Shown here: positions 1,588 through 64,000 of the stretch, piece after piece | Layout of the letters: every line of letters starts with the position of its first letter | How positions within the stretch are numbered: the first letter of the stretch is position 1 | Assembly (NCBI GenBank): GCA_050084515.1 | Contig: CM114271.1 | Span: forward strand, 44,640,001 to 44,704,000 | Direction: 5' to 3' | Origin: Blasia pusilla | Taxonomy: Eukaryota | DNA length: 64,000 nt | Notes under the pieces: model-generated | The model's input: the letters and a program-made list of their open reading frames with translations, nothing else | Databases searched by the model: none | Told to the model about the DNA's origin: nothing | Position numbers and translations under genes: made by a program

Positions 1588-1772
1588 ACGGTCCAGGACA
1601 ATGTCACCACTAGTGACAGTTGACTATTCTTTCTAAGGAGAATCGTGAGCTCAACAGTTTCACGTTGTCGATGAGCACGGTCAGTAGTTATAGTGGGCAG
1701 TACCCCGAAGACTCATAACTATTAAAATGGGTGAATGGTGCAAATGGATGGCTGGTTACAATAGTGTTTATC

Positions 1773-13226: not shown

Positions 13227-14471
13227 TCTTAATGAGTTCAAGTAGAAGTGACCTCCGACGGCAACTGCAAGCACATGCAGTTCTACTATCCCTGACAAAT
13301 GACATGTAATGTTTGACTGAGTAGCATGATATGAAAAATCACTCGTCTCTCATTTCGAAATTCTCGGTGGGCACCGCTATCATACTATGACCTCTCGACC
13401 TTTCGCATTCTAGTCGGTCCGATCCGAAATACCACGCCTCGAAGATCCACATCACCCGTCCCACTCCACAGCGCACCTTCCTGATAACAATTGCTTCAAG
13501 AGATAAACTTCACCGCCAGCCATGGATCGCCTCCTCACCCTCCGACCTGAACTAATCATTTACCTTCCTCCTTATCACCCGAGCATTTCAATTTTGCCAC
13601 TGTGGAGGGTCCGCAACAACTGTCGGTCAACCATCTTATCATACGTGCCGCACAGGACAGCGCAATTACATGTTCAGATCAGCTCTCTGCAGGCGTCCAA
13701 GCAAACAGAGAAAAGAGTTCACTAGCCAAATAACAAAATGCCTACAACACGCCTACAAAATGCCTTCACGCAATTCAACGCTCCGATGAAATGATTCTGA
13801 AAGTTAGGAATGTCCTCGCTCTAGACAGGAACGACTTCCGTGTTTCAAGCCTCAAACTTCCCTTCCACCACACACCACAGCTATTTGCAGACAAGTGTCC
13901 TACACTGACAGACTAGAGGAATGCTTTCAGCAGAACTTTGCCTGAAGACGACCACACCGCAAAGAATCGCGCATTCCGGAAGCCCTAAAATTTAGTGACA
14001 ACAACTCCCACCAATTCCATGCCCCGAAAACGAAACATCCATTGATCTCCCCGTTCAAATCGCGGATTCGTAGATTGCCCTCAGTTCACGGCTCCGTGAG
14101 TTACCGGACCGAAAGTCTGACGCCCTTCTGTGCTCGTCAACCAGAAACGTCCGCGTGTCGTGAAAGGAAGTCTCGCATTGAGCGAGCACAACTTGAGTGC
14201 ATAGGAGCCGTCGATTAAGCAATCGGACAGCCAATATCACACGGAGAGAACACACCCGATGGATGATGTTTGCTCCCATCAAAGACTTGCTGTTCAAATT
14301 AAAGGCAAGGGGATTCTAAAAAAACCATATGACTATAATGTACCCAACTGCGATGAGAGGACTAGTGGCACTATCGCACTATGATATCCTGGCTTTAGTC
14401 TACGAACTCGGTGTCATAATCCGTCCATCTCAAGATGGCAATAGGGGGTGTCCCTTGTCCTACCTATCTAA

Positions 14472-38418: not shown

Positions 38419-41214
38419 TGGAAAGAGAAATTGAAAATATTTATGTCTGCATATGCTACTAAGGTTTTTTTTCCAAATCAATAAACCATACTCTCTTAAC
38501 AATATTGGATAGAGAAATTGAAAATCCTTATGTCCACCGATGTTACTAAGGTTGTTGTGCCATTTACGGGCTTGTGATGGGTTGAGAAGTTGCAGTATAG
38601 AAGGAGTGCGATGATTCAAACTATCTTATATAAGTTTTTGAGAAATCTGCATAACCAAACTTGGGTATTTTAATTTGTAATGTTGTTGTGTTATGGAAAA
38701 TCCCTCACAAGACTAATGAAATCAATTTTTTTGTGGAAAGGCCTTTGCAAAGGTGATGGAACGAATTGTAAGGGAAAATAGTCTGTTTGTCTCCCTTGTA
38801 ATTCACAAACATTTTTTATCAAGTCAACTAGGTTTATTCGACCATATACACATTTCATTGTCAACTAGTTAGGACGGATCCTATTAAAATATTCATTCTC
38901 TTTGTCAATTTCTCTTTCTATGACCTCCCACTTAAGATCAAAAATTATTTTTTAGAAAAATCCAATGCCACGTGTTAATAGCTAAATAGAACTACTTAAA
39001 AAACTACTTCCTCCAATTAATACATGATTTTACACTTATAATAATGCGGTCTAGCATGGCACTAACGTGCTATATAAATATGTATGTATTATGAATAAAT
39101 TAGTTAAATAAAAATTTCAATCATAAGTTTTGAAAAAATATTATTATTATTGAAAAATGCTCTTTCAAATCTATATTATTGAAAGAAGATCATACGTGTT
39201 GCTTCCTTGGTGCATACACGTGTAATGTTTAACACATGATTTAGTAGGTTCAGGCATAGCACGGGCAATCTATTTGTAAGTTTCATGTTAGTATTTTACA
39301 TAGCACCAGTGATAGGGCACATCATCGGTTATGCTTAGATTAAACCTTAAGCAGGGCAATATACTTGTGCTTTTCATGTTAATGTTTGACTACTTCAAAA
39401 AAGGAAAAGAGTTTTAAAATTCGTTATCAAAACTAATGCAATCATTCAAAATTATTTTAAAATGATAAATTAATTAGAAGAATTACGTGGCGAACCTGCA
39501 TAATTACCAAAGCGACGAGTAGTGTACCAAAACTGAGACGCAGTCATCTTTTTCTCCTACGAACTTATCTTAAATGAAAAAAATGATACAACATCTCGGA
39601 TCTCCATGTGTGTCACTGCGGTACTGGAGAGGATAAAGGCTGAAGTTCCGTCGCTTGCGGACAGATTGAATGTGCATAAATAAACCTTTGTGTCTACGCA
39701 AAGCGGACGCAGCGATTGTGTCTCCGGAATCCATGGCGAGTCCATTTTTGGGGTCCAGGGCAAAGGGCAAAGGAGCTGGGGCCGAATAGACTCTGCCGAG
39801 GGCACGTTTGACTAACCTGTTCACGACGAATTGACCGTATTTATCGTGGCGGGCGCCGGGCGGGTGCACCGCGCGGCTTTCGGAAGGAGTCGCACGCTCG
39901 GCCGAACTAGGTACAACGATTAGTGTCGAGACTAGGGATGCGAGTCGGTCAGAATGCCAGGGAGGATGGGGGGGAAAGCGTTGTCAGGTTCCTTGACTTG
40001 AAGGAACGGTTGGATGTCAATGTGGATTGGGGCGATAAGCATCGTGAGACTGGAATCACTGGATCCTCGCTCGGCAGGCATCCACTCGACGGTACAGTGA
40101 GTAACTGCATCAGGAATCATGTTCTGCGCAAATGTCCATACATCCGATCTCACCAAAGATGGCGTGCACACATGGTCTATGATTAAGAATCATAAATAGA
40201 TGCAGGGTAGTCAAGCGTCTTCAACTGCGGCGCTTCCAGAATCTAGAGACTGCAGATATTATTTTGGCGCTTTTTGCTGCAGTGCGCTCATTCAGCACAC
40301 CAAACGGAACGCGGTTTCATGACAGGACTACCAATACACAGAGTCATTTATTTCGCTCCCTCCTAAATTACAGCGGTTGGCTCTCAGTTCTCCTCCACAC
40401 AATAACCGTGGCAGAATTGGAAGCAAACGTCCTCTCTTCTCCGCGGTTGATAGATGGTGGCGCGGGAGACCGAGGCAACAAGATTACATGGTAAGGAGTC
40501 GGAGCTATTTCATAGACCGTACCAAAATAATGGCCACCGCTGTTTTAATAGTCTGTACGCTTTTCAAAATTGCGAAATGAAATGGGGAAAAAAACGGGGG
40601 ACTGTGCACAGACCTTCGATTCTTCCCGGTAAAGGGGCTTGAGAGCAGCAACGGGAGGAGCGTGCCGGCCGGCCGCCCGCAAAGTCTGTGTCACAGCGCG
40701 GTAAGCAAGCACATCGTCATGTTCCCACGTTAGGGTCTCTCACTTGCACTTCTTCCTGATGGCCTACCGGAAGTTCGGAACCTGCGTGACGAGTGGGTAG
40801 GTCCTGTGCGTCTACTGTGCACCGCACGCCATGGCAGTGGCGTCAAAAAGTTGGATACAGTAATACAATGACAGGAAATCGCAGAGAGGGAGATTGGCGA
40901 GGAGGAGGTCAATGGGAGAGCATTCATCGCTGAATGATCTTTAATTTACCCTCTCTACTCTGGAGGCCCTTCAGAGCGGTGAAATAGACCAGCGGAGGCT
41001 GAGGTTGTGGAAATCTATTCGCCAATGCTTGCCTGCTTGTTGTACCACCAGAAACCCTGGCCGCGTTGTGTGGGTGAGTGAGCCCATCGTCATATGCGAT
41101 GCGAGCGCTATCATAGAAAAGGTGGTCGCACAGCCGCTTGCCGAAGGTTGGAGGAGAGACTGATACAGGTCGGGATTCAACATCGGAGAGGAGGAGAAGG
41201 AACCGCCTTGACCC

Positions 41215-41712
41215 ATGGCTCAAAACATTTTGAATAAGGAGCAGCTGGCGGAGCTGCAAGATGTTTTCTCGAGATTTGACAGGGACCGCGACGGGAGTTT
41301 ATCGATGATGGAACTGAGCGCACTACTGCGGTCTCTTGATCTGAAGCCGGAGAGTCCTGAGGTGTTGAGCGATATGTTAGCAAAGGCGGACGTAAACAAG
41401 AATGGATTGATAGAGTTTACCGAGTTTGCTGACCTTGTTGCGCCCGAGATAGTCCGAGGCATACGCTACAATCAAGAAGATCTCCTTGCGTTGTTCAGAG
41501 CTTTCGACCGTGATGGAAATGGCTTCATAACAGCTGTAGAACTTGCACAATCGATGTCACGTCTCGGTCACACACTCACCGTGAGGGAGCTGGCAGATAT
41601 GATCAAAGAGGCTGATACTGATGGGGATGGGAGGATTAGTTTTACAGAATTCGCAGAGGCAATCGGCAGTGCAGCCATGGAAAACGCCAACGCCTCTATT
41701 GGAGTCTGCTAA
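41215..41712 (+). CDS. Calmodulin-like protein, CML17/CML18-like, 4 EF hands, intronless, 165 aa
   Basis: EF-hand loops DRDRDGSLSMME, DVNKNGLIEFTE, DRDGNGFITAVE and DTDGDGRISFTE; subfamily-like ELAQSMSRLGHTLT..EL..MIKEAD. Confidence 0.95.
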   Translation: MAQNILNKEQLAELQDVFSRFDRDRDGSLSMMELSALLRSLDLKPESPEVLSDMLAKADVNKNGLIEFTEFADLVAPEIVRGIRYNQEDLLALFRAFDRDGNGFITAVELAQSMSRLGHTLTVRELADMIKEADTDGDGRISFTEFAEAIGSAAMENANASIGVC

Positions 41713-44875: not shown

Positions 44876-46965
44876 TTACTGCTTGATAAACCCTTCCACC
44901 TTCTGTAACCAGCGCATGTACTCCCGTTGCTCCTTGTCATCCAGGAGCTTGAACAGGAAGTCTACCAATTCCCTATTTACGCCTCGAGCTTTTATGTACT
45001 TCTCAAACTGGTTCTGGAGCTCCTCATCCAATTGCCTGACATGCAAAGTCACAAGCAAGTAATCAAAGAACAGTGAGGAGTCGAGACACAATAAACCCCA
45101 CGACCCAACAATCCCTACTAGAGACACTGGAAGTTCTTGAGACAACGTGACTCAGTTGCTGAGTGCCATCAGCTTATTGACACTGCACCGATACCAGAAG
45201 TCTGAAGTCGGAAAGGCAGCCCTTAAAACCGGCCACCCTACCCCACCCCACCCCAACTCACCTCACCTCACCTCATCCCACCCATCACAGGCTGACTAGT
45301 CTCTCTCCAAGAGCTCACGAACTTCTCAATTCCAAACGAAAGGAAAAAGCCAACCTTCGAAGTCCCACTTCTCTAGAGTGAGATTCAAACTTCTGAAAAA
45401 CAGAGAAGAAACCGACGGACAACTTACAAGAAATTAGGACCGTCGTACAAAGCATCCCTCGAATCCTTATCCTCCCAGAAGTAGACATGGTCAATTGAGA
45501 TTTCATTCCCGTACGATGCAGCGCTGATTTCCAGCGTGGGGTTGTCGCTACCCTTGTTGACTGTGATCGTCATGTTCACGCATGCGGCACTCTCATCGTC
45601 TCTCTCCTCGTCACTCTCTTCCATCGGCTCATCATTTTCATGATTCTCGCCGTAAGCATCCGGCTGATACACACATGCGACTGCAATATCCTCTTCGCCA
45701 TACGATCTGCGGAGAATCACATCTGCATGACCTTGCTTGTCGGTCAAGGTCCACGGCTTCGGTGGACCCTTCGAGACATCCTGTTCACAAGAAACCGTCA
45801 GACCAAAGATTGTGGGAACTCAGAGAGACAATTCCCGCCATCAGAACGACATACATGGACCTGGCATACTGGAAGCGTTGGCAGTCTCGTGATCCTGGCG
45901 GAATCATACAAGGAACTGCAGCAATTGCGTCGTGACCTAAATACACCTGAAGCTCACGAACTAAGAGGATCAAAGAGCCACCTACAAAGCTGATTCATTC
46001 ATCGATCACCACCCAGGGCCATCGCAACACCTCCAAATTTCAAGGTCATCTTTCAAGCATTTCCTTCTATACATAGGAAAGGACCGCAACCTCACCCATG
46101 CCCCCGCGGCGGATGACTAAGTGCATTGGCCTGTGTACCGAGGCTTCTCACTGGCATCTTTCTTCGATGACACACGGAAAGAATTTGGTCGATGGCCCTG
46201 AGGAGAGTGGAGGAGGTTTAACTACTTAAACCATAAACCCTAGATCAAAAGGAAGAAAGCGTGCAAGCAGTGCGCTAAAATTGAAGTGGATCACAACCCT
46301 CGCAATATGGCATGAATGAATCATAGATTGCGTGGAAGACAATTCCTCCATAAACCAGACCTGCAGACTCACGCAGACTAACAGCTTGAACTAACTGATA
46401 GATTATCGCCTGCTTGAGACCGTCAAGAAACGAATATTAAATCTCGTCCAACTCGATACGATTTTCTTTGTCTCCCCAATCGCACTAGTTCTTATGTCTA
46501 CACTACGGCCAGAAGTCACTACCCTACCCCATGCTCTACGCTCATCGCACTTTCTACGATCGTTCAACGGAAACGAATGATAAGTCAAAGGCAGAGACTG
46601 GAAAGACCTAATCGGGACTCCCACGGGAACCAAAGGCGAAACGAGGAAACATGGGAATGAATCAAGGAAAAGACAGGCAGAAACAATTGCTAGATCCGAC
46701 GCACCTTAGGCTGAGAATAACTCTTCCTCTCGTGATCCAGCTCGGCTCTGAGAACCGAAAGCAAGCCCCCGTCCGACTCCCGACCAACCTCCCGGGCTGT
46801 GGACGCCATTCGCGAGAGCGTCCATAGGGGCGCTCTGGCAGCAGGGGCAGCGACTTCACAAAAAGTCTTCCGGAAGCCATTCACTGAAGGCTGCTCGACG
46901 AGATACCGTGCGGCGCATCGCCTCAGCGGGGCCGCAGCTCTTCGCAAGACCTTCAAAGCAGCCAT
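44876..46965 (-). CDS. Mitochondrial acidic matrix glycoprotein (MAM33/C1QBP family), 3 exons, ~257 aa
   Basis: Exons 46965-46705, 45780-45428 and 45035-44876 join in frame. Arg/Ala-rich presequence, LLSVLRAELDHE, LTDKQGHADVILRRSYGEEDIAV, an acidic loop, and YDGPNFLQLDEELQNQFEKYIKARGVN...KEQREYMRWLQKVEGF. Confidence 0.93.
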
Positions 46966-48410: not shown

Positions 48411-49854
48411 CATCAAGCGGTAGATGACCAAGAGGTTAGCTGAACAAACATAAGGTCCTCTTGAAGAGGTCTTGGGTTCAACTCTCCCCTTGGACAAGTG
48501 GGGCGGTCTCAACCCCTGCAAGGCGTGGCGTCCCCTACCTAGGGCATGGATGGTCCATGTTCGAGAGAGAGAACACCTTGTGTGCCTTTCATGTGTGTGC
48601 CTTGACTATGCTCCCAGGTTAAAAATCTGGATAAAATTCCACGCCTTCACAAAAAAAACAAAAAAAAACAAAAACCAAATCTCCTGAGTGAGAACCCCAA
48701 ATCTAGATGTGAAGGTGCCAATGTCGGATGCAATGTCAATTTCACATATGTGGAAGGGAGCCCATAAGCCAGATCGGCTTTCCGTGGACTAAAAATCTAC
48801 TCTACTCTACTCTCTCCCCGTTACATGTTAAGACTTATATGTTAAGGTCAAAAAACTTCTATCATATGCATGACTCATGAGGATTCAATTATAATTCCAT
48901 TAGGGAATCCGAACTCTAGCATCCAAGCTTATGCCAACCTAAAAGGTTGAGTACTCCAAAGGCTCAACATGATAAAGACAGCTAGGGAGAGCCATCTCCC
49001 TCACCTTTATACCTTTGGGAAGGGCCAAACAACTCTTCCCCCATAAATAACCAAAAGACGATAACATAGGCATGCACACATGAGTTATCGAATGACCATT
49101 GACTTAGTCAATGGGTCATTTGCCCCAAATAGCAAAAGAGAGGGTTTATCCCAAACGAGATAAAAAAATGAAGATCTTGAAGCAATAGAGATGACGCCAA
49201 CCTCATCCAATCACTTAGGAAAATTTTGCCCAAACAACTCGTTGACTCCCTACGTCGATGATACAGTAGAATTATATTTGTCAATCAACTGTAATGTGTT
49301 AGTTGTTATGCATATGCACATCACCACATAATCCACATCATTCATCACTTCTAAATAAAAACATTATCGATCTTTCCAACACACAAGTAAATCTACATAC
49401 ATACAACAAGATGCCCACATATATATATACCAAGACCCCATAACGGCCTCCCTAACTAGAAGTTGGATCTCTTAACTCCAAGTAGCACAAATTACATCCA
49501 CATGAAATAATGCACTACCCTATATACATATGGGACACAATTGTCATTCCCTGGAAATCAAGTGATGAGAGGGATTAGGCAGACATATGCCACCCTCTAG
49601 AACAATCATCATACACCAACATGGTGGGATGCACCCTTCAAAAATCTATGTAACATACACATCAACCTTGCAAGTATCATTGCTAAGCTCGAATATATTG
49701 TCTCGTCCACATCCGGAGTATAGCATCACGCATAGTTGTGTTTATAATCCTCCCAAATAATTGAAATCACACCATATCATCCCTCCAACATGAGGACTTT
49801 GATAGGTTACACCTTGTGCACATGTAAAATTGTGTGTCGTATAATAACATGCAG

Positions 49855-52800
49855 TGTCATAGGTATTTTCTATGGAAAGAAGCATAATTGGTGGGAAATG
49901 GCTCTCACACTCACACACCACCATGGTAAACAAAATTTGCAATCAGAGAATGAGTGGAGGCTGGTCCTCTTCACAATTATATAAGGTATATACAAGCAAC
50001 CCTAACCCTAACCTTAAGCATAGTCTCGAGTTAGACTGATTGTGATTAACTAACCCTAGTTAAAATAATAACGTTTAACTGACTAACCAAGATTGAGCTT
50101 CCCTACTTTGTGTGAGTACCAAATATAATAGTTCATGTGTCTCATGAGCTTGATTGTAACTCAGTCTTCAATACTCCCCATCAAGCTCATATCGATATCT
50201 CTAATGCCTAAATCATTTCTAAACATCTCAAACTTATCTCTAGACAACTAACATATCAGCATCTGTGAATCCTTGTAATTGAAAACTCGGAGAAGGTTCA
50301 AATTGAAGCCTGAATTGAATAGAGAATTTTACTTACCACATAATCCTCCTCATAGCATCAAGGTGAGGTTTTCGAGGTGCTTGCATAAACTGGCTCACTA
50401 GGCCAACAACATAGCTCAAATTTGGTCTGATAATGGTTAGATAGATTAAACTTCCAACCATGCGTCTGTACATATTAGAATTTGCAAGCATCTCTCTTTC
50501 ATCCACTCTTAGCTTCACACTCTGGTCCAACGGTGTAGAGATTGGCTTACAAGCCGTCATATCATATTTTGAAAGCATATGAAGAGCATATTATCGTTGT
50601 AGTAACCACATGCTCTCTCCAACCTTGATAAACTCAATACCAAGGAAGTATTTGACTTCTCCCAAATCCTTCATATCAAATTCTGCTTGTAACTTAAGCT
50701 TGACTTGTTGTCCCATTTTTTTAATACTCCCAGTAATCAGGAGATCGTCAACATACAACACAATAATAACCATATGATCTTGTCCTCTCAAGACATATGA
50801 CGAGGAGTCAGAATCACATACCCTAAAACCCAACTCTTGTCAGACGTATGTAATCTTGCCATAGCAAGCTCTTAGAGCTTGTTTGAGCCCGTATAGAGCT
50901 TTCTTCAACCTGCATACGTGAAATAGAAACTTGGGATGCTCATATTCAGATGGTTGAGTCATATTGTCGCGACCCTCATAACCAAACAACACCAAATACG
51001 CGCCAAGCGAAACATCAGAACTCAAAGGAACTCACGCCGCGAGGTTTGCGCTTTGGAGAGGCGTTTGGTAGAGTCTCTTGGAAAAGTCTAAGAGACGAAA
51101 CGCGGAACAGAGTTGTGCATTTCATGCGTTAGTGGTCGCGACCAGGAAACCTAGACCAAACGCGAGCCGAGACTTGAGATGAGTTGAGTCTTGGAGGTTG
51201 GTTGCCAAAGAGGTGAGAACCAGTTTGGAACATGACTAGCGTTTGGGAGAATCTGACTGTGTTTAGGATCATAACGTTGAGCTCCGAGATGCGTTCGGGA
51301 CAAGTAAGGGCGCGTTGGAAAGCTAATCTTGAGACGCTTCCAACGCACCAAAGATCTCAGCAAACGCATAAGTACAGGCTGAGATATTGGCCGAAAACGA
51401 TTCAGAGAGCAATCGGGTTGAGGGCCATTGAGGGGCCCAGGTGTCTTTCCTAAATGTAGGGGCCCCGGAGATCCCAGAAGTACTAGTAAGGGGAGTACCT
51501 TCTCTGAGATGTCTTGGGAAACGAAACCCCACTTTGGGCGCCAAACGGCGTTTGAGGCACGGATGAAACGGGAGTTTTGGTGCGAAACCCAAACCCAAAC
51601 CCGATCCAAGGGAGTGGACTTTGTACGCCACACTTGGATTCCAACCGAGATTCAAATGCGAGTCTTGGTGAGGAACTCATTGGATGTTCATCGGACAGCT
51701 TGGAACCGCTTAGGCGCGAAACGCGCTTTCAGTTCCTAAAACCGACAGAAAGTCCGTCCCAAGTCTTTCGAGACTTGCCCGTGTTGGAAACCGCGAAACT
51801 AGGAAGGTTGAGCTTGAAGAGAGAGTCCGAGACGAGAACTCGGAAAGTAATCCCGCTGATTGATCCAAGACCCGACTAACCGGTGCGTGTTTGGATGCAG
51901 TCGGCGTTGAGAGCGTGACTCATCAACGCACGCTCGCAACAAACAAGATTAACGTTCAAGGAGAGTAGGAGCACGACACATATATACCTCCTTGTATAGA
52001 TCTCCATTCAAGAAGGCATTCTTGACGTCCATGTGATGCAATCTCCACTTCTTACTTAATGCAGCTGCAACCACTATTCTCGTAGTCGTCATCTTTGCAA
52101 TAGGGCTAAATGTTTCCTCATAATCGATGCCATATTGTTATGCATAGCCCTTAGCCACCAATCTCGTTTTGTATTTGTTAATTGTACCATCTTGATTGCA
52201 CTTGATTTTGTAAACCCATTTGTAACCAATAGCTTCCTTACTAGAAGGTATATCAACTAGTTCCCATGTCTATTGATGTCTCAATGCAGCAAGCTCTTCC
52301 TCCATAGCTTCAATCTATTCCATTTTACTTGCAGCTTCTTCAAAACAACTCGGCTCCTATTCTTGAAGGGTAGTTATCATATATGCATGATGTGTCGCAA
52401 GGAAACCTTCATTTATAAATCTATGCATTGGATGTGTAACTCTACTTGATCTACGAAGTTGTTGATCAGAGGTAGATGCCTCTAACACTTGACTCGAGCT
52501 TTGACTAGTGTCAACAGACTGAATACGTACTCTTCCCGTTCATGGACTCATGGATTAAACTGATGAATCTAGGACTTCTCATAATCCTCCACTAGTACTT
52601 GGGGAAGTTGAAGACAATGTCTATTGGTTTACAATCATATTCCATCCCTCAACACGCGAGTTTAGAGGTGAAATAGGCTCAGATGGAGCATACCATGACT
52701 TTAGCTCATCAAAGACAATATCCCGACTAATAATAAGCTACCTAGAGGATGGAATGTAGCACTTATACCCCTTAGTTCCATTAGCATAGTCAATGAAGAT

Positions 52801-54441
52801 ACATCTTTCAGACTTGAGGTCTAATTTCTGATGTCTCTTAGAAGGAACATGAGCATAACAAATACAACCAAATACTTTCAAGAAGGAAAAATCAAGTCTA
52901 CTTCATGTGAAGACTTTGAATGGAGTTTTATCATGAACTCCTACTGTTGGAGTTTGGTTGATTAAGAAGACTGCACATGCTACAGCCTCTGCCCAATACA
53001 CCTTAGGCATGTTCTTCTCATTCAGCATAGCTCGTGCCACTTCAGCAATATGTCGATTCTTCCTCTCGACCACTCCATTTTTTTGTGGATTGTAACGACA
53101 AGTCACCTGACGTTGGATGTTATTGTGACGTAAATAGTGATCAAACTCTGTTGAAAGATACTCTCCTCCTCTATCACAACGCAATTTTAGAATGTGTTGT
53201 CCAGTGTGCTTCTCTACTAGAACTCTGAATGTTTGGAACATTGAGAATACTTGAATTTCAGAAAGTATACCCATATATACCTAAAGAAGTCATCAATAAA
53301 TGAAACAAAGTACTAACAATCACTAAGGCTATGTTGTGATATTGTCCACACCTCATTGTCGATCAACTTCAATATCTTTGATGCTCTTCTACCTTGCTTT
53401 GGAAAAGGAAATCTATCTTGTTTTCCAAATTGGCAAGCAGGACATACCTCTAACGTAGGAGGAATCGCTAATTTATGGAGTCTTATTACTATATTAGATG
53501 ATGAAAGACTCTATAATCTTTGAATATTCATATGTCCTGTGAGCACAATTGCAGGATCTTTCACTGGCTCCAAACTATTTAACCATTTAGCCTGTGAGGT
53601 CATGTGATATGATGCACCAGAGTCAATCTACCAATCTGTTGTCGAGTCTTTCTTGACCATTGCTCCCATATGATGAGTCATGACCAAGAGATGCTCCGTT
53701 TGTGAATGTTATTATTCTTGGTACTGCTCTTGATGTTGTTGCTCCACATTTTTTTGTTGCTGTAAGGCTCTTGTTCTCATATCTGCCTTCTTCTTGAAGC
53801 AAAATTTTGCATAGTGACCCTTTATCCCATAGTAATTGCAAGATCCAAGGACCCTTTGCTGTTGACCTCGACTCCAACGGTTTCCACCATCACCACCTTG
53901 TGATTGTGTCTGGTACTGGTTTGTAGTTGATTGAGTGACGTTATACTGAGTGTCTCTTCCTCCATATGCTTGATATCCACCACAAGCACGGAAGCTTCTA
54001 CCACGATCCTTGCCTCTATTTGATCCATAACCTATAAATAGCGCACTTTCTTGCAGACTAGATGAGCTACCGCCGCCTACTAGGCATATTTCTTCACTAA
54101 TTAACAGTGGGACTAACTCTTGAAAGGTTGGATACTTCTCTCTCATAGAGATAGAGATCTCAAAGGACTTGTAATATTTTGGAAGGCCTTGAAGAGTGAA
54201 AAAAATCAGATCATCATCTTCTATTGTCACTCCAATGTTATTCAATTGATCAACAATATGTCTGATATTCAAAATATAATCATTGATGCTCTTCTATCCT
54301 TTCCTCACTTCGTTCAATTGCTGTTTCAATTGAAGCTTTGTGGCCTTTGTATATATCTGGAACATTTTTTCTTTGGAGTATCAACATCTTGAACGTGACT
54401 TATCATCGGCGAACTGATCGTTGTCATGACCATACGGATTA
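49855..54441 (-). mobile_element. Degenerate Ty1/Copia LTR retrotransposon; 5' end displaced by the Gypsy insertion
   Basis: Gag with knuckle CNYYGIKGHYAKFC, protease IDSGASYHMT (~53600-53630), integrase LRCDRGGEY...NGVVERKNRH, RT CRLKKALYGLKQA / LYVDDLLITG / YRRMVGSLIYLTIIRP. RNase H is mostly deleted. Polypurine tract at ~50171-50185; putative 3' LTR ~49855-50170 (TG...CA). Confidence 0.92.
50965..51978. mobile_element. Solo LTR (1014 bp) inserted in the Copia RT
   Basis: TGTCGCG...CACGACA termini; 5-bp TSD CATAT at 50960-50964 and 51979-51983. Confidence 0.9.
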
Positions 54442-57400
54442 TGTCGTAGAGTATAGTGTGCTAGTAGAGGACATTCCTTATGTAGGACCGTAGTGGCTTG
54501 GTAGAGATGCGGTTCCATACATAGGATTGGGGGTTACTCAGTTGGGGGTGAGTTTCCCAGTAGGGCCCGCTCTTAGGTTGGAGGATATAAGGTGGAGTGC
54601 ACTCAAAGAACAGTCAGTTCTTTGAGTTGAGCCTGTTGCGTTGGGAGTTAGCCGTGGTAGTGAGTAGAGCTCTTGGCTATGGTGTTTCCCGCAAGCTTCG
54701 ACCTGGATTCTCCCATCGTGGAGTGGGTTTGGCTTGATTGTATGTGATTGTAAACGTGTTTTATGACAGTAGGTCTTTCACGAATTTCACTCAAAGAACT
54801 GGATTAGATCGATGGTAGCTTCGATTGTAGATCAATAGGATCTGGTTAGGGCTGATTGTGTACTCAGCCGTGGATGTTCGGGGCTTTTTGCCTATGTTGG
54901 AGGTATGAATCAGGTGCGTGGTTGGTTGGGAAAGAAGCGCCTTGCTGAGAGCTTTCCAGCGTGGCGAACGGGGCGATAGGGGCATGTCTCGAGCATTTCT
55001 CGGCGTTTTGAGGCTTCGAGGCAACTCGTGGTAGCTCGAGGCGAGTGGGCGTGAGAGGCGAAGTAAGGAGCAAGGAGCAAGCAAGCAAGCTTGCTTGCTT
55101 GGGCATGAGGCAATTTTTGCAGGATTTGGGATTTGAGTTTTGCATAACTGGTCACCCATCTTTGGGCTATTTCGCTCTGGAGGACGCTTAATCGCTGAGT
55201 TCTTAACTATGCCAGGATGCATCTGTTGTAGCTCATTTGGTCTTTGTTCGAGATGTGTTAGGCGCTTTATGCATCTCAGGTTTTTGGTTGATGTACCTCT
55301 AGCGCATAGTACGGTGTAGCCTCTCCATGCAAGTGATATTTTCAGGTGCTGCGAGTTCGACTAGCACGTCATCGACCCGCGGCGGAGTAGCTATTGCGTT
55401 AGAATTGTGTGGTGGGTTTTGTGGATTCAGGGGGCACCACGTTTGGTGGATTGTGTTACCTTGATTTCCATTTGCGGTTGGAGGGTTGTCGTTGGACTTC
55501 CTGTGTCTGGATCCCCTCCATCGTGCTTCTTGCTTGCGCGCCCATTGTTAGGGTTGACGCTGATTTCCAGAGTAGTGTTACTCCTGTGTGCTACTGATAG
55601 TGAGGCTGGAGTGATGACCAGTAGATTGTGGACTGTGGGAGACTTCTTGTGGTGATGAGAGGTTAGATTGCCTACACCCATAGCTAGTAGAGCTACAATA
55701 GTAGAGCGACATCGACGTCACTTGGGTAATTTGGTGGTGGTGCGGCATCGGCGTTGGTCATCACGGAGTTGTCGGGTGGTCTGGTTGGGGACCGTGGTGC
55801 GGACAGTGGTGGTTTCACATGGAGTGGATTTAGGTATCGGCTACCTTTTCCATTTCCGATGGTTGATGAAGAGGAGGACCAGGGTGTTCCAAACACCGAG
55901 TCTTCTACATTGTTATCGAGTGTTGGAGCTCCATTGATTTGGGACATGGACGGTGGATATGGGGCCATGAAGGGCCCACGACGATACTCGGGTGCAGTGG
56001 GCACCATTGAGTTGGAGGACTTCATGCAAGAGTTTGATACGTGGTGTGATATGCAGATGTTGCGGAACGCCACGTTGTTTACACCCTTCTTGGCTTGGAA
56101 GGGGTTGTTTCAGCACTTGGAAGGACCACCCATGGATGATTACCATGAGTTTAGGAAGGACCATGTTGCTGAGATTGAGGCATGGAGACAATATTGGTCT
56201 CCAGGCTATGTGTCTATCACCCATGGTGGTATTGGTAGTAGTGCTCCTACTATGCCCCGCCCAGCCCGACGTTGAGTGGTAATGCAGTATGAGCCGGAGT
56301 GGGGGTACGGTGGAGGAGGTACTAGTGGGGGTACTAGTGGAGGTACTAGTGCCCCACCATCGCTCACCGGTTGGTTGCAGAGTTCTTCAAGAGGTTGAAG
56401 AAGAACTATCAGGAGTGAAGACGGAGAAGTTGAGGAATCTTCAAGACTTTGAGCGAAAAGATGGTGAGAGTCTTCGTGAGGCATACACTCGTATCGGCGA
56501 CGCTTGATTTCGATTACCCAGGGTGTGATTGAGGATCACGATCGCTTTTGGTACGGATCTTGGACAGAGATTTGCGCGTAGAGGGTACGTGATGCTACTC
56601 TTATGAGTGATGATTCACCCACATTGACCCATGTGTTTGCTTTATCCGAGAAGATTGAGCTTAACATGGTGAAGGAGAGAGTGGTGACATCCGCATTCAA
56701 GAGGGGATACAACTACTACTTCGGGTTCAGCCGCCCACCTCCGATCTCGTAGTAGTGGTGGTGGTAGTAGTAGTGGGAGTCGTGGGGGTACACGCGACCT
56801 CAGTCAAGTCCTAGAGGGACATTTGTGCAGAGACCATTGCCTTCATTTGCTGCCCTGCAGCAAGGACAGTCATGTTGGACATGTGGAGGTGATCATGTTA
56901 GGAAGTTTTGTCCCCAAGAGGATGGGAGACGGACTTTGGAGGATGGGCCTCAGTCGGCCCCAACTTAGTGTGATCATTGCGGGAGACTAGGTCATCCTCG
57001 AGAGCGTTGCTTTGATCTCCATCCAGAGTTGAGATTAGGCCGTGGCCGTGGTGGAGTAGCTCCGAGAGGCCGAGGTGGTAGAGGTGGTAGGGGTGGTAGA
57101 GGTAGACCAGTGGTTGGAGAGCCTACGGTGGCTACCCCTACCACTACGACAGTCACTATGGTCGCCAGGATTGAGCAGATTGGAGCAGAGTTGGCTACTA
57201 TGGTCGGTATCCAAAGATAGATCGAGTTCGGGAGCAGGGCTTCCACCTCTTATGGAGGGATGATCTCTCTTATATGGCGAGTGTCAAAGACAATGTTGAG
57301 GCATCAGTGCGATTCTGAGAGGAGCCACTCGAGCGTGAGAGCCACGTGGTGCTCTTGTGGAGTTGGACCCACAGAGGGGTGAGGTGGGAGGCGGCTAGGC

Positions 57401-58609
57401 TTCCCGAGTCATTCTTGTTGTCTGAGGTGCTTAGGACTCCATCCATGGTTCCTACGCTGCTTATTGAGCCGGCAGTGGGGATCGAGGCATCTACATCGCG
57501 TGTAGTAGACACGGATGCAAAGATCAATGCAAGATTATGCGGATGTCAACCGGTGTTGGGATCCCCATTGTTTTCGCCACGGAGTCGATGGCTTTAGGAG
57601 TTGACTTAGCTCTGTATTTGATTAGCGACCACGTTGTGTGAACGTGGGGTGTTATGCTACACGTGTTGAGGTGGATGAGGGTGTTGCGGTGGAGCGACCC
57701 TCTATGTCGAGTAGCATTGAGTACCGGTGCTACTTGGCAAAGAAAGAACGGCGAAGATGGATGCATTACCCCGCCAGCCATTGATCGTGAGAGGCTTATA
57801 CTGGTGTATGTATATTGGACAACCGGAGTGGGATCTTCCGATTGGTGAGTCCTACAGACAGTGTATAGACCGGATAGAGTCTTGTTAGACTCGGTGCCCA
57901 ACCTTTGATGTTGGGAAAGGCGGCATGTATTGGTTTGGGTATTCGGAGGTCGAGCTTGAGCCTTGCCCATTCCAGATTCAAACATCACTTGGAGGAGCCA
58001 ATGATAGGTCTCAATTCATGACACGGAAAAGTTTTTCATGCGGTTGAGACCAGATCATGCGATCGATAGCTCCCGGTTGGGAGTATCTCATGTAGTCACA
58101 TCGGCCGAGTCGTATGATGTACTAGTTGGAGGAGTAGTATTGTACCCGATGGGTTTTCAGATGGATTATCGGATCTGCGATGGGCGTCTTACTGACCTAG
58201 TTGGCAGTCCGGGATGGACGTATGAGCCAAGTTCTGTGAGATTTATTTATGGGGCTCGACCAAGAGGGTCTTCCCAACAAGTGTTAGCATCTCGGGTGGT
58301 TTTAGTGGAGTAGTCACTTGGCCAGAGACTTTTTGGAGGGTAATGTTTCTACTATGGATTCTCCTGCGCATGAGGAGGTAGAGGAGGTCCCTATTTTTTG
58401 CAGCAAAGTGGCATCCTCATCGTTGGATGTGCCACTTTGGAGTTCAGCGGTGCACTACGGCAAAAGGCCGACGCCTAGTGCAGAGGCTTGGTGTGAGGTG
58501 TTATACCTCACGAGGAAGAGGAGGCCCCACGGCGGACTCCTACTACTGGTCCGATTAGGTTATCCCTTTGGATACTACACCCATTGTATGGCAAGATCCG
58601 CCGGAGGGT

Positions 58610-59545
58610 ATTTGTGTGTTAGATCTCTTTGGTGGGATTAGCACGGTTTGGCTGCAGTGTTGCAGCCGGTATTCTGTCATGGAGATACGTGTATGTGGGA
58701 GCGAGATGAGACGGCCTGCAGAGTCTCATCTCGACATATTGGTCGATTGATGCGAGATACCTGAGTTGTTGCCGCCATCGGCTATTCGTGGGTACCGGCG
58801 TGTTTTTACCATCACACATTGCATTGTTGGGGCGCAGGACCTTGAGAGGGTTGGTCCTGTGGATTTGGTGATTGCCGGATGGCCATGTCGTGGTCATACA
58901 CGTCGGCCGGGTCGTGGTGAGGGATTACATGACCCTAGGTCTCGATTGTTTTGGGAGATGTTACGGGTGTTACGACATCTTCAGTTCATCAGCACGTGCT
59001 CTAGCTTACATTTCGAGAATGTTCCATTGTTGGGTGACACTCGGACCCGGATGATGCGAGTGTTCATGAGGTGCGGTCTTGGATTGACCAGCGGTGTTGT
59101 TGGATGCTGGCAGAGTTGGCTCGTGTGCACATCGCCCACGCTTGTGGTGGACAAACTTGTTGCCTAGGAGGTTCTACGTTGAGCATATGATGCAAGGTCT
59201 GGCGGGATCCTCGCCTTACAAATGGATAGTATCTTGATCTTGGCGACTTTCTCAAGTGGTGAGGTTATTGATCGGTCACCCATGGCGGCAGTGAACGTGT
59301 GGGCGACCTAGGATGGCACTACCCACATTTGTGAGTTTTCCTCGTCACATGCCTACAGGAAGGTGGTCCAGGGCTTGTATGGGATTCTCATGTGCGACAG
59401 TTGGTGGAGCCTAACGCCGATGAGAGAGAGCGTGTGATGGGATTTGCTATTGGTGTGACAAATGTTGCTTCTATTTACGAGGCTTCACGACGTCATGTGT
59501 TGGGTCAGACCATGGACCTGAATTGTTTGACTTGGATTTTGAGTC
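58610..59545 (+). pseudogene. DNMT3-like C5 cytosine methyltransferase domain within the Gypsy polyprotein
   Basis: Motif I VLDLFGGIST (58616), IV GPVDLVIAGWPC (Cys 58886), VI FENV (59015), VIII LDAGRVGSCAHRPRLWWTNL (59100), IX ERERVMGF and X RRHVLGQTMD (~59420-59517). Split across frames. Confidence 0.9.
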
Positions 59546-60012
59546 TTGGTATGGCCGAGCAACGTCGACTTCAGACTATGTCTGTGGGTCTTCCACCCCT
59601 TGTAATGAGCTCGATGGTTACCGGGACGGTAGAGGCATCGGTGGGGGCGAGGAGAGTAGTATTTTGCATCCTTGGAGTAAATGGGATGTAATGGTGGGCA
59701 TGTGGAGTTGGTTGCTCATCTTTGGTGGAGGAGTTATTTGCTCAGATGATGGTGTAGCTAAGGGTGTACCATCTTGTGAGGGGTTATGAGCGACCAATGG
59801 CATCGCCCCTCCCTCTAGTGTGCCAGTGGAGGAGACTTGGGAGCCATTACTTGGGCCCAAGCTTACGGGAGGTGAAAAACGACGCTTGACACAATTCCTA
59901 CGTGCTTATAGGAGTTGTTTTGCCTTTAGCATGAAGGAGTTGGGTTCTCTGGTTGGACCCGGTATACGGATTGATTTGGCTAGTGATACGCCAATCTTCC
60001 GTCGTCCCTACC

Positions 60013-61004
60013 TGTCGCGCCCCTACTCTCCTTGAACGTCAATCTTTAGTGTTGCGGAAGCGTGCGTTCAGTAGGTCACGAACTCATCGCCGATCTGCAC
60101 CCAAACACGCACTCTCGTTAGTCGGGTTTGGCCAACCGGCGTTCCAACCCACCGAGTCCTCAACTCGGCATCTCATCAAGCTCAACCTTCCTTAGTTCCT
60201 AGCTCCCAACACATGGCAAGTCCTTCAAGACTTGGAACAGACTTCCTGATTAGTCCAGGGATCTGAAACGGCACTTACACGCCTAGCGATCCCAACTGTT
60301 CAACGGTCCTCGTGTGAGTTCCGAACCGAGACCCAAGTAATTGAGTCGCGGCGTGAAATCCAAGAGGGATGTCTAAAATCGCCTCAATGGACTTGGTGCA
60401 GGTTTTCCAACCCAACGCCCAAACTCGCGTTCCGTTCCATGCCCTTGAGCCGCCCAAAGTGGGGTTTGGGTTCCAAGCACTCTCGGAGACCTTCCCCTTT
60501 ACTAGTACTTCTGGGGTTCTCCAATAACCCCTCCCCTTTGGGAAAAGAGGTTCGGGCTCTTCATTGTGGCCCTCAACCCGACTCCACTTACAGTCGTTTT
60601 CGCTTTGTATCTCGGCCATTGCTTATGCGTTTGCAGCGATCTTTGATGCGTTTGAACCGGCTCTCCATAAGCTTTCCATCGCACTCTTATTTGTTCCAAA
60701 CGCATCTCGGCGCTAAAAGTTATGGCCATAAATACAGTCGGAAACTCTCAAACGCAAGTGGCGTTCCAAGTCCGGATCTTTCCTTTGGCAACCCACTTCC
60801 TAGACTCGACTTCTTTCAAGTCTCATTCCGCGTTTGGTCCAGGTTTCCGAGTCGCGACCATCACATCTGAAACGCGACTTCTCGCTCGCGTCTCATCTCT
60901 TGTCTCCTCTTTGAGACAACTCCAACGCGCAAACCATCTTAGCGTGAGCCCGCTAATGTTCCGATGTTCCGCTTGGCACTTGTTTGGTCCTGAGGGTCGC
61001 AACA
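60013..61004. mobile_element. Solo LTR (992 bp) inserted at the start of the Gypsy RT; related to 50965-51978 in opposite orientation
   Basis: TGTCGCG...CGCAACA termini; TSD CTACC at 60008-60012 and 61005-61009. Removing it restores IFRRPYRYSDMERDLIQ. Confidence 0.92.
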
Positions 61005-63744
61005 CTACCGATATAGTGATATGGAGAGGGACTTGATTCAGAGTAGGACGTTGGACCTTTTGGAGGCTGGATTAGTGGAGTTGTTGCATGGAGAGTATGC
61101 ATCAGCCACTGTCATGCCTGCTAAAAAGGATATGCATGGCAACTACACGGATAGGCGGATGTGTGGAGATTACCGTCCTATCAATCGGCAAACCAAGGCC
61201 GATAGGTATGCCATGCCTACACCTGAGGAGATCTTTGATGTGGTGGGACAGGCAAAGATTTTCAGTACTTTGATCTTTGGCAGATACCATCAATTGCCTA
61301 TTCGGGAGAGTGACAAGGCCAAGACAAAGACATTTTGGGGTGTCAACTCTCATGGCAAGGATTGTTTGTACTAGTGGAAATTCTTACCCTTTGGGTTGAA
61401 GAATGCACTGCCGAGTTTGAAAGAGTGATGGACAGGATCCTAGCAGGTTGGATTTTGTTCGGTGTTACATTGATGATATCTTGGTGTTCAAGAACACGGT
61501 GGAGGAGCATCGATACATTTGCAGATGGTGTTTGAGCGGTTGAAAGCTCATGGTCTACGTTGCATCCAGGAAAGTGTAAGTTCTTCCATGAGGATGTTGA
61601 GTACTTGGGTCATGTGATCTATCCAGGTGGTTTGGGAGTTTAGCAAGCAAAGGTGGAGGCTATTGCACTTATTCGCGTCGGTAGATGTGAGTAGAGTTCG
61701 AGCATTCATGGGATTGGCGAACTACTATCGGAGGTATGTGAAGGATTTAGTGCTATGGCAAAGCCTTTGAACCAATTTCTGAAATCAGATCAAGAGTGGC
61801 AATGGGAGATGATCAGAGAGAGCTTTTGTGGAGCTTAAGGCCCGAGTTGGTGGCGGCGCCTATCTTGAGGAGACCTATCGAGGGCGCCCATTTACACACC
61901 GATTGGAGTAGGTTGGGACTTGGAGCGGTGTTGACACAACATGATGATGAGCACATGGAGTTTGTGGTGGCCTATGCAAGTCGTTCGAATAATGCAAATG
62001 AGTCGCGCTATAGTTCATATGAGGGAGAGTGCTTGGCAAGAGTGTGGGGGTGGCACACTTTAGGTGTTACTTGTTTGGCACCCGTTTACCCTTATTCGAT
62101 CACCAACCGCTCAAGTGGTTGATGGAGTCGGACAAGCTTACAGGGAAGCTTGCACGGTGGGCTCTTATCTTACAGGAGTATGACTTCCAGGTGGTACATA
62201 GACCTGGAGTTGCCAACCTTGATGCTGATGGGTTGAGTAGGAACCCATGTACTAGCCAAGAGGATACAACAAGGGCTAGATGGTATGGCGAGGTTGATGA
62301 GGAGATGGTGCCAGGTTGGCATGCATCCGCCTTTTTATGTTGGTTAGGGGTGGACTCTAGTATGGAGGACCACATGATATCTTACTCTAGTCAGAGGGTA
62401 GATGGCTAGCCTTCAGATCCTAAGGTTGGAGATGATGGTACAGATCAGCGTGATATTCATGATGATGCGTTGGTGTTGGAGTTCCTACGGACCGGTAGGG
62501 TGCCAAGCATAGTGAGTGCCAAGGAGCGAGACCGTGTTCTTCAACGTGCTAAGAGGTATCGATTGGAGGGAACACATATTCTCCGCGTGTGGGAGGATGG
62601 TAGAGTACGAGTAGTGCCACATTTGGCTCAGAGAGAGCGCATTGTGCGACATGCCCATGAGGAGTTGGGACATTTTGGGGTAAAGCGTTTAGGATATAGC
62701 TTACTCCTTGGCCAGTATTGGTGGCGTGGCATGCATACTCAGGTGCAGCAGTTGGTGTCACGTTGTATGGTTTGTGACCGGGTGAGGGCATCATTTAATG
62801 CCCCTACACCACAATTACACCCCTTGCCTATTATGGGGTTGGGTTACCGTTGGAGTGTGGACTTTTGCGGGACCGTTATCGTTGGTATGCGACATCATCA
62901 ATATGTGTTGGTGATGGTGGAGCACTTCTCCAAGTGGATTGAGTTGGTGGCATTACGGACAAGGCGAGTGAGGAACGGCGTATGCGTTTCTCGGATAGAG
63001 TGCTTAGTCATTTTGGTGCACCGGTGAAGTCGACCGACCAGTGGTACAGAGTTTCAGTGGTGAGTTTTGGTCTTGTGTGACAAGGCGTTGATTGATCATC
63101 GGACCACGTCTCGAGATCATCAGAGGCGGATGGTTTGGCCGAGCGTGTGGTTCAGACGGTGAAGAGGGCATTGCGCAAGTATGGCCTCTGAAGGGGCATC
63201 TTGGAGACTGGATATTCAATTGCCATGGTTAGCCATGGGTATAGGTTCGATCGCCAAGCATCCTTGGCTTCCTTCTCACCTTATTTTCTGTTCTACGGCC
63301 GAGATCCGGACTTGCCAACAAAGAATTCATCGGGAGTCTAGTGAGGTGGTGAACCTTGATGACCCGAGATGTGGATGAGGGTGTGTTCTCGCGAGCGGAG
63401 CTCTTTCGAGAGTTATGCCAATGACCTTTGAGAATCTTGCCATTGCTCAACATAGGGATACGTTGCGGTATGCAACCATTCGAGGTGGAGGTTATCGACC
63501 ATCGATTCAGAGGTTCCATGTGGGGACTATGTCTATTTGCAGCAGATTGCCCGACAACGTTGGATGTGACGGTAGGCCGCACTATTTTACGAATGCGCGA
63601 GGTGTTAGCTTCTGGAGTTCTCATGTTGGAGGGTCGTGATGGAGTTGTTTGGAAGGACCATTGCGTAATTGTGCGCCATGTCATCTTCCAAATGTGGATG
63701 GTATCATTGACCCAAGCTTAGCCATGATACGTGCTAGCTTGAGG

Positions 63745-63884
63745 TGCATGTTGTGTGGGTCTGCCGTAACGCGGCCCGTATGTTGGTGTGTGATCGGTGT
63801 TCTAGGGGTTGGCACATGATGTGTTTGACTCCACGTTTGGATGTCGTTCCTACTGGAAGGTGGGTTTGTCCTCGATGTACTTAG
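63745..63884 (+). other. PHD finger (C4HC3) at the integrase C-terminus
   Basis: CMLCG (63745), a frameshift, then MLVCDRCSRGWHMMCLTPRLDVVPTGRWVCPRCT* (63780-63884). Confidence 0.9.
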
Positions 63885-64000
63885 GAGAGGTAGATGACTT
63901 GATCTTTGCATGATATGGATTACAGATGTGCGACTAACGATGGGGCAACCTAGCACCCGGCCTTCTGATTCGGGCACCCAAGAAGGTGTATAGCATGTAG

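Follow-up and report, generated by a model that had tools for sequence, protein, structure and literature searches.

Does the PHD finger that closes the pol region of a retroelement serve the integrase to which it is attached, and does it work together with the DNA methyltransferase (DNMT) of the same element? This question is raised by positions 63745..63884 of the 64,000-nucleotide stretch of DNA analysed here (the window). The original prediction, which was made from the letters of the window, had described a PHD finger on the integrase of a DNMT-carrying element and had proposed that the element chooses chromatin for integration with the former and marks it with the latter. Our best overall explanation, to which we give a probability of about 0.55, is that the locus holds a dead copy of KnitGypsy-Dnmt3 type, in whose family the PHD finger of the integrase would tether the integration machinery to histone H3 tails.

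Identification of the PHD finger

The bounds of the finger proved to be exact: the codon for Cys1 lies at 63745-63747, and the TAG stop codon, which directly follows the ending ...CPRCT, lies at 63882-63884. In the profile search, the 48-aa piece at 63738-63881 matched PF00628 (PHD) with an E of 2.9e-10 and 40.5 bits, covering profile positions 3-47 of 47. Since the curated gathering score of this Pfam family is 24, the match is far beyond chance, which confirmed both the finger and its coordinates. The description of the C4HC3 pattern as complete stood only in part. All eight zinc ligands are present, but a single one-base frame change at approximately 63763 splits them over two reading frames: Cys1 and Cys2 (CMLC) are in the frame of the ORF at 63640-63816, and Cys3, Cys4, His, and Cys6-8 are in the frame of the ORF at 63738-63881, whereas the pattern of the relatives is in a single frame. 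The original prediction must have passed over this break without noting it. The tryptophan two residues before Cys7, which marks a PHD finger as opposed to a RING finger, is also present in the window (...GRWVCPRC). A RING finger was ruled out by the C4HC3 order of the ligands, this tryptophan, and the Pfam and PDB matches. An ADD-type reader was likewise rejected, as no ADD family was found among the nine Pfam families listed at E ≤ 1 and no ADD structure among the Foldseek matches listed.

The finger follows the C-terminal domain of the integrase, and the stop codon stands at once behind it, indicating that it does end pol, as had been predicted. Proteins of close relatives terminate 0-14 residues past the finger. 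Pfam profiles were run over all 89 stop-to-stop pieces of 35 aa or more from the plus strand of 54.5-64 kb. The only matches at E ≤ 0.01 were DNA_methylase, RT_RNaseH, Integrase_H2C2/rve, PHD, and one weak match to a GDSL lipase family (E 0.0014), which is probably due to chance; no chromodomain (PF00385) was found in these pieces.

Structure and surroundings of the element

The element runs on the plus strand from approximately 54.5 kb to beyond 64 kb, in the order gag, protease, DNMT3-like domain, reverse transcriptase (RT), RNase H, integrase, and PHD finger. The features of the window are as follows.

1.3-13.3 kb: exons of a WASH-complex gene
41212-41709: EF-hand ORF, intact
44.9-45.8 kb: MAM33 exons
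49.5-64 kb: transposon cluster
49581..49863, minus strand: second remnant of the family with the C-terminal part of an integrase and a PHD finger (tblastn, P0075 residues 278-368; translation)
52906-54293, minus strand: copia gag/integrase remnant
54560..54800, plus strand: upstream terminal repeat ("A" repeat), 72-73% identity to both A copies flanking the related loci L008 and L010
55946..58333, plus strand: gag and protease region, interrupted by stops and frame changes (tblastn, P0103 and P0085)
58601..59702, plus strand: DNMT3-like cytosine-5 methyltransferase domain, degraded (PF00145; tblastn, P0085 and P0103)
about 59802..60012, plus strand: RT leader up to the insertion point (tblastn, P0085 residues 696-753 and P0012 residues 8-73)
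60013..61004, plus strand: solo LTR of another family, inserted in pol (absent from relatives; TG...CA ends; duplication)
61006..62406, plus strand: reverse transcriptase and RNase H (tblastn, P0085 and P0012; PF17919 and PF17917 on 61751-62406)
62410..63744, plus strand: integrase with H2C2 zinc domain, catalytic core, and C-terminal domain (PF17921, E 5.6e-13; PF00665)
63745..63881, plus strand: PHD finger (C4HC3) with a frame change at about 63763 (PF00628, E 2.9e-10; alignment with 42 relatives)
63882..63884, plus strand: pol stop codon (TAG)
63885..64000, plus strand: start of the 3' untranslated region (homology to L008 and L010)

The gag and protease parts were located by tblastn with Marchantia proteins: residues 1-178 of P0103 aligned with 55946-56495 (gag), and residues 11-300 of P0085 aligned with 57475-58333 (protease region). 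A CCHC knuckle is visible in the ORF at 56969-57217, and no Pfam match was obtained within 55946..58333. The methyltransferase domain matched PF00145 with an E of 2e-5 on 58751-59164. The DNMT (58601-59702) and the PHD finger (63745-63881) are collinear on the plus strand within one element, in agreement with the statement that the finger sits on the integrase of a DNMT-carrying element.

Pol is interrupted by the segment at 60013..61004, which is flanked by a 5-bp target duplication, CTACC, at 60008-60012 and 61005-61009 and has 70% identity to 50965-51978 on the minus strand. Because of its TG..CA ends and the target duplication, the segment is a solo LTR; the same features ruled out an intron-like insert common to the family.

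The upstream A repeat and the homology of the 3' untranslated region to relatives indicate that the element reaches past the end of the window. Positions 63891-64000 showed 84-89% identity to the first 110 bases past the PHD stop codon in L008 and L010, whose terminal repeats start approximately 170-290 bases past the stop; the equivalent position here is beyond the window. A 3' LTR within the window was rejected, as the 116 bases after the stop codon have no second copy upstream. In L008, the repeats are arranged as A-coding-B-A-B (A, 2705-3041 and 11458-11794; B, 11339-11453 and 11794-11908). Only the homologue of the upstream A repeat is seen in the window, its extent (54560..54800) having been set by homology alone, and its partner and the other 3' repeats would fall past base 64000.

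The remnant at 49581..49863 belongs to the same family and is far more decayed than the main copy. The original prediction had also read the location of the element inside another retroelement as fitting heterochromatin. This part found no support: the element adjoins the copia remnant on one side only, its 3' end is outside the window, and the EF-hand and MAM33 genes are found at a distance of 4-10 kb from the two copies of the family, so that the window is no gene desert and an argument for heterochromatin cannot be drawn from the locus. The ratio of observed to expected CpG was 0.5-0.84 in the element, 0.36-0.38 in the older remnants, and 0.46-0.87 in the genic parts, and did not discriminate among them.

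Family membership and the integrase-PHD fusion

On the basis of its sequence, the window copy is assigned to the Ty3/gypsy family published as KnitGypsy-Dnmt3 from Klebsormidium (de Mendoza et al. 2018, PMC5890265), in a bryophyte-like host. The gypsy domain order RT-RNase H-integrase is present in the window, as is a DNMT3-related domain inside pol, detected both with PF00145 and by tblastn with DNMT-bearing Marchantia proteins. As described in the main text of PMC5890265, KnitGypsy-Dnmt3 of K. nitens is likewise a Ty3/gypsy element with a DNMT3-related domain in pol before the RT, and its unusual DIRS-like A-coding-B-A-B layout is the one that we found in the bryophyte-type relative L008. 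According to the same text the family is one of charophytes, whereas here it was also found, judging by source names, in liverworts, Sphagnum, and the chlorophyte Haematococcus.

When the integrase piece was used as the query, the first 87 of the 100 proteins listed were family members. The best matches had 76-79% identity and included Calypogeia fissa proteins; other family matches came from Riccia, Marchantia, Sphagnum, and Klebsormidium nitens (KFL_009030040), and the closest named relatives were liverworts and Sphagnum. Members labelled Haematococcus lacustris were found by a protein search from the K. nitens protein. PF00628 was annotated in 54 of the 87 family matches and PF00385 in none, and chromodomain elements made up 10 of the 13 weakest, out-of-family matches. 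These counts agree with the prediction that the PHD finger occupies the place of the chromodomain.

The fusion of the finger to the integrase was consistent throughout the family. Of the family proteins with 55 aa or more beyond the integrase, all 71 carried a PHD finger in frame at the integrase C-terminus in the profile search, beginning 6-14 aa after the end of the integrase model; the strict C4HC3 pattern was seen in 46 of the first 100 matches. With 71 of 71 in frame, the original prediction withstands its own check of whether the PHD finger is out of frame with the integrase in the consensus. The sequence of KFL_009030040 (P0067) from K. nitens is truncated just short of the position of the finger, and the 77%-identical proteins P0051, P0126, and P0127 bear it.

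In a quick IQ-TREE analysis of the integrase (82 rows, 70 of them from the family), the 70 family rows were separated from the chromoviruses with an SH-aLRT of 100. Two inner clades were obtained, clade A (SH-aLRT 98) and clade B (87), both with the PHD finger and each with a different position of the DNMT. P0067 falls inside clade A together with P0002 and P0075, the closest relatives of the window copy.

A frameshift-aware alignment of P0075 to 62700-63890 gave 379 matched codons, of which 314 were identical, with 13 frame changes and one internal stop codon; 12 of the frame changes and the internal stop fall in the integrase (62410..63744). Because of these lesions, the integrase-PHD region of the window is a pseudogene and the copy is dead; the window copy itself does nothing.

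Co-occurrence of the PHD finger and the DNMT

The pairing of reader and writer was then followed over copies of the family. For the intact relative P0103, 25 of 27 PDB matches were DNMT3A/3B/3C. Eighty metagenome loci with an alignment to integrase-PHD were taken. The DNMT was present in 29 of the 33 loci with at least 3.3 kb of upstream sequence, the PHD finger in 68 of the 71 with downstream sequence, and both domains in 22 of the 28 that could be judged for both. The six exceptions were L003, L060, and L063, which had no DNMT, and L016, L017, and L046, in which the integrase match was shortened and no PHD finger was seen. At the protein level, 18 of 19 sequences with at least 1050 aa before the integrase had the DNMT, and the 19th (P0086) has it in pieces. 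With 22 of 28 loci and 18 of 19 long proteins, the predicted co-occurrence over family copies was upheld, and the reader-writer pairing is real and family-wide; these two chromatin-related parts of pol are the hallmark of the family.

Two architectures were observed, and they correspond to the two inner integrase clades. The window copy and its relatives from Marchantia and Klebsormidium have the order (gag-protease)-DNMT-RT-RNase H-integrase-PHD, and algal-type sequences have the order RT-RNase H-DNMT-integrase-PHD, followed by a tail of 110-366 residues. In the bryophyte branch, the DNMT and the PHD finger are at opposite ends of pol, and cleavage by the protease may separate them.

The tight co-occurrence of the two domains would also be explained if the PHD finger served the DNMT3-like domain rather than the integrase, sensing the H3 tail in the manner of an ADD domain and licensing or positioning the methylation of the new copy. 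The methylase is of the DNMT3 type, and because of the adjacent order RNase H-DNMT-integrase-PHD of the second architecture, both domains could be left in one mature protein. However, the finger is a plain PHD finger, with no ADD family or structure among its matches; RT, RNase H, and integrase intervene between the two domains in the branch of the window; L060 looks like a PHD-bearing relative without a DNMT (approximately 1.7 kb from gag to RT, as compared with 3.1 kb in L008); and the methylase activity of the family is putative. On this evidence, we regard a finger that serves the DNMT as improbable, and a functional coupling of any kind between the PHD finger and the DNMT as speculative and rather doubtful.

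Class of the PHD finger and its putative target

In an alignment of 42 sequences with 35-90% mutual identity, all eight zinc ligands were at least 90% conserved, as were M64, D68, G73, P87, G89, and W91. The conserved features comprise a methionine three residues before Cys3, an aspartate after Cys3, Gly-Trp/Tyr before the histidine, and a P-x-G-x-W loop. The residue two before the zinc-binding histidine is an invariant glycine, and there is no cage tryptophan; in ING- and BPTF-type readers of H3K4me3, the same position carries the tryptophan of the cage.

When P0075 and the ORF of an intact locus were searched by sequence against the PDB, the top matches were CHD4 PHD1/2, PHF12, KMT2C/D, KDM5A/B PHD1, BHC80 (PHF21A), ATXR5, DPF2/3, UHRF1, AIRE, BAZ2A/B, and ORC1b. 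The fold was modelled on the ORF of an intact relative (L025:1314-1613), and the AF2 model had a pLDDT of 87-93 across the finger. With this model, the top Foldseek matches were PHD fingers of BAZ2A/B, ATXR5, DPF2/3, UHRF1, BHC80, CHD4/5, ORC1b, and MOZ, with rmsd values of 0.6-1.7 Å over 47-54 columns; 36 matches had an E of 0.001 or less. The titles of several of these entries describe complexes with unmodified H3. No ING, BPTF, or TAF3-type reader of H3K4me3 and no DNMT3 or ATRX ADD entry was among the Foldseek matches listed for the L025 model.

By sequence and by model, the finger resembles the CHD4 / KDM5 / BHC80 / DPF / BAZ2 / UHRF1 class, the binders of unmodified H3 tails, and its features suggest a finger that binds the H3 N-terminus with no methyl-lysine cage. 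We consider it probable, although far from certain, that the PHD finger of the family binds H3 tails. The acidic contacts for unmethylated K4 come, in fingers of the CHD4, KDM5, DPF, and AIRE types, from the loop that joins Cys2 to Cys3. In the present family, this loop is acidic in one clade, the one that has the DNMT beside the integrase; in the bryophyte clade and in the window it is neutral or basic. Because of this variation between clades, specificity for the state of K4 cannot be read from the sequence.

Instead of an unmodified tail, the finger might read a methylated mark, repressive or active (H3K9me, H3K27me, or H3K4me3), and steer insertion to chromatin that bears it, as the heterochromatin idea of the original prediction would imply. 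The analogy to chromoviruses suggests such a mode, the best sequence matches are CHD4-type fingers, which tolerate or favour H3K9me3, and the element lies among the transposon remnants that form a small cluster at 49.5-64 kb. On the other side, the family has an invariant glycine in place of a cage tryptophan, none of the methyl-lysine readers named above was among the structural matches listed, host genes are within 4-10 kb, and there are only two insertions to judge by. A methyl-mark reader is accordingly quite unlikely.

No better a chance is given to a finger that acts as an adaptor for a non-histone host protein, such as one with an H3-like N-terminus, or a chromatin or nuclear-import factor, and is not itself a direct reader of chromatin. 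Fingers of the UHRF1 type, which are among the best structural matches, also bind the non-histone N-termini of PAF15 and Stella according to their entry titles, and the Cys2-Cys3 loop differs between the clades. The family nevertheless keeps the aspartate after Cys3 and the P-x-G-x-W loop, which hold the H3 N-terminus in solved complexes, and the closest solved relatives are all histone-tail binders by their entry titles.

Proposed mechanism

The proposal of the original prediction holds as a hypothesis: the in-frame co-occurrence throughout the family and the fold class of the finger add to its weight, and the surroundings of the locus and the analogy to ADD take from it. Tethering of the integrase to H3 tails is our best reading of the mechanism. 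In intact members, the PHD finger would stay on the integrase and bind the N-terminal tail of histone H3, with a preference, or at least a tolerance, for lysine 4 without methyl groups. The H3-bound finger would then hold the pre-integration complex at nucleosomes, in the way that chromoviruses use their chromodomain, and the DNMT3-like domain would act on the DNA of the element itself. Whether the PHD finger takes part in choosing the integration sites in this way is, in our estimate, an evenly balanced matter.

A wider reading is possible, albeit more tentative than any functional link between the two domains: an old gypsy lineage of chlorophytes, charophytes, and bryophytes may have kept the pair of PHD finger and DNMT3-like domain as its characteristic equipment, choosing nucleosomes with unmethylated H3K4 and then methylating itself. 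The pair would have been retained despite a relocation, or a double capture, of the DNMT in the polyprotein. If this were true, the DNMT3 logic of "read H3K4me0, write 5mC" would exist in a transposon-borne form that is still transcribed in land plants.

Transcription and sequencing reads

The RNA-seq run used here shares its species label with the best-matching DNA run. On 62400-64000, 1365 reads were placed at a likeness of at least 90%, of which 93 were placed at at least 99%. The family is transcribed; most of these reads come from other copies, since a likeness of at least 90% was applied to a family with very many copies. Reads with the first mate on the minus strand reached a depth of 47-157, those with the first mate on the plus strand one of 0-13, as would be expected of sense transcripts provided that the library has the usual stranded design.

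One extra base relative to the window was seen in the RNA reads at 63120 (76/86), 63236 (76/92), 63365 (30/46), and 63661 (117/130), and DNA contigs carried both forms at these four frame-change sites. The share of word depth agreeing with the window at the four sites was 86-98% in run X1 and 2-45% in the independent DNA run X11, indicating that the shorter forms exist as DNA. In an independent DNA run, one contig goes on past the break in the finger with one extra base, and at 63765 the window is at variance with 55 of 124 RNA reads. It is very improbable, the least likely of the readings considered, that the frame changes are assembly errors in a high-copy repeat and that the real copy is intact: 10 of the 13 each look like one missing base, the four sites have one more base in reads or contigs of other runs, and the EF-hand host ORF is intact, but the reads placed at at least 90% likeness derive mostly from other copies, the shorter forms occur as DNA in runs X1 and X11, and the internal stop, the solo LTR in pol, and substitutions at conserved residues are present besides.

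Relation to known systems

For KnitGypsy-Dnmt3, it is reported in the main text of PMC5890265 that the DNMT is under purifying selection and that the copies carry CHG/CHH methylation; in the same work, the isolated K. nitens DNMT domain showed no de novo methylation in yeast, a result that the authors judged inconclusive. The word PHD does not occur in the main text and one supplement of that paper, nor are chromodomain, Marchantia, or liverwort mentioned in its main text.

Chromoviruses such as MAGGY likewise have a small histone-tail reader fused to the C-terminus of the integrase, and they are the nearest out-of-family integrase relatives that we found. They carry a chromodomain and no DNMT, whereas the reader here is a PHD zinc finger whose target mark is probably different. 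The MAGGY chromodomain on the gypsy integrase targets H3K9me regions, as cited in the text of 10.1101/2021.11.30.470311. According to this survey, PHD and Chromo are the reader domains most often found with RT/integrase domains across eukaryotes; the examples named in its text are cnidarian PYGO-like PHD fingers, and that text mentions neither Klebsormidium nor Marchantia nor a pairing with a DNMT.

The EpiLTRs are LTR retrotransposons that likewise join DNA methyltransferases with a chromatin reader. As described in the text of 10.64898/2026.05.21.726589, those of Cymbomonas and Euglena combine an adenine methylase (DAM) with a DNMT4-like DNMT and a chromodomain. The present family differs in that a DNMT3-like domain is combined with a PHD finger, in a different gypsy lineage. 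The same logic of a zinc-finger reader of the H3 tail and a DNMT3-type catalytic domain is found in animal DNMT3A/3B/3L, with which the original prediction had compared the element. The comparison could be retained as an analogy only: there is no ADD family among the Pfam matches and no ADD structure among the Foldseek matches listed, and the reader is on the integrase, approximately 1300 residues from the DNMT in this branch.

In a literature search that took in the running text of preprints, we found no account of a PHD-integrase fusion in gypsy elements of the green lineage, and none of DNMT retrotransposons or of the KnitGypsy-Dnmt3 family in bryophytes. The REXdb survey paper mentions neither PHD nor methyltransferase. 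The family itself is known; its reader-writer pairing appears to be under-described.

The family unites two subjects, targeting by a chromatin reader and retrotransposons that carry a DNMT. The textbook example of a transposon that reads chromatin is the targeting of integration by chromodomains; retrotransposons with a DNMT are, to our knowledge, a recent curiosity from a few algae. With the DNMT region of the Marchantia relative as the query, 28 proteins were matched, 16 of them labelled Marchantia polymorpha; the family is thus abundant in bryophytes. It is transcribed, and it always carries the PHD finger. Marchantia, for which chromatin maps have been published, is a tractable model plant, so that both PHD-steered integration and self-methylation of a transposon can be tested in it. 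The matches also bear on genome annotation. Many of the 28 proteins are annotated as ordinary genes, and in Marchantia, Calypogeia, and Sphagnum, fragments of this element account for many gene models named "DNA (cytosine-5)-methyltransferase" or "hypothetical".

Decay of the window copy

The frame changes in the degraded PHD-bearing Ty3/gypsy copy at 62700-63890 were mostly single-base losses (10 of 13, counted in a frameshift-aware alignment to the relative protein P0075), and amino-acid identity across this region was still 83% despite them. At four of the frame-change sites, shorter forms were common in DNA runs. These results suggest either that a defective subfamily has been amplified or that the sequence of the repeat is unpolished.

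The pol region of this copy is interrupted by a solo LTR with TG..CA ends and a 5-bp duplication (CTACC), and an LTR-like copy 70% identical to it lies on the opposite strand; no coding match was found for this LTR family. A Ty1/copia remnant directly adjoins the PHD element on its 5' side and may have been its insertion target.

Retroelement and host features in the window
1353-13349, - strand, exons of WASH complex subunits 7 and 4 (host genes)
41212-41709, + strand, intact four-EF-hand ORF (host gene)
44879-45819, - strand, MAM33 mitochondrial glycoprotein gene (host)
49581-49863, - strand, strongly decayed integrase-PHD remnant, second KnitGypsy-Dnmt3-type copy
50965-51978, - strand, LTR-like copy
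52906-54293, - strand, Ty1/copia remnant (gag PF14223 and integrase-like ORF)
60013-61004, + strand, solo LTR

Architecture of the relatives

In the alignment of the family PHD region (A2), a nearly invariant N-C-A-P-C-H motif was observed in the integrase C-terminal region about 20 residues ahead of the PHD finger, at residues 26-31 of the intact relative ORF L025:1314-1613 and at about 63667-63684 in the window. This motif may form a further metal site, in a part of the AF2 model of that ORF with low confidence (pLDDT 54-68).

A second polyprotein architecture, in which the DNMT is placed between RNase H and integrase, was found in P0025, P0035, P0037, P0038, P0120-P0122 and others; these relatives carry a tail of 110-366 residues after the PHD, in which no Pfam match was obtained. 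In Marchantia, the gag-PR-DNMT gene models P0102-P0107 stop at the DNMT end and the RT-integrase-PHD ORFs P0010, P0012, P0014 and P0015 begin a few residues past it; judging from these sequences, the DNMT/RT junction may therefore be an ORF1/ORF2 boundary in this branch. The junction is read through in P0085, P0101 and P0104.

The bryophyte-type relative at locus L008 has DIRS-like A-coding-B-A-B repeats (A, 2705-3041 and 11458-11794; B, 11339-11453 and 11794-11908) rather than plain LTRs, a layout in common with that reported for the Klebsormidium element (PMC5890265).

No DNMT match was found in L060, a PHD-containing relative with gag at 5521-6690 and RT at 8414-9144, and only about 1.7 kb separates the two. 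L060 may have lost the domain by deletion, or may represent a naturally DNMT-less form of the family.

Surroundings of the second remnant of the family

A distance of about 3.8 kb separates the integrase-PHD remnant at 49581-49863 from MAM33, and the 49.5-51 kb region around it is AT-rich, with a CpG observed/expected ratio of 0.36.
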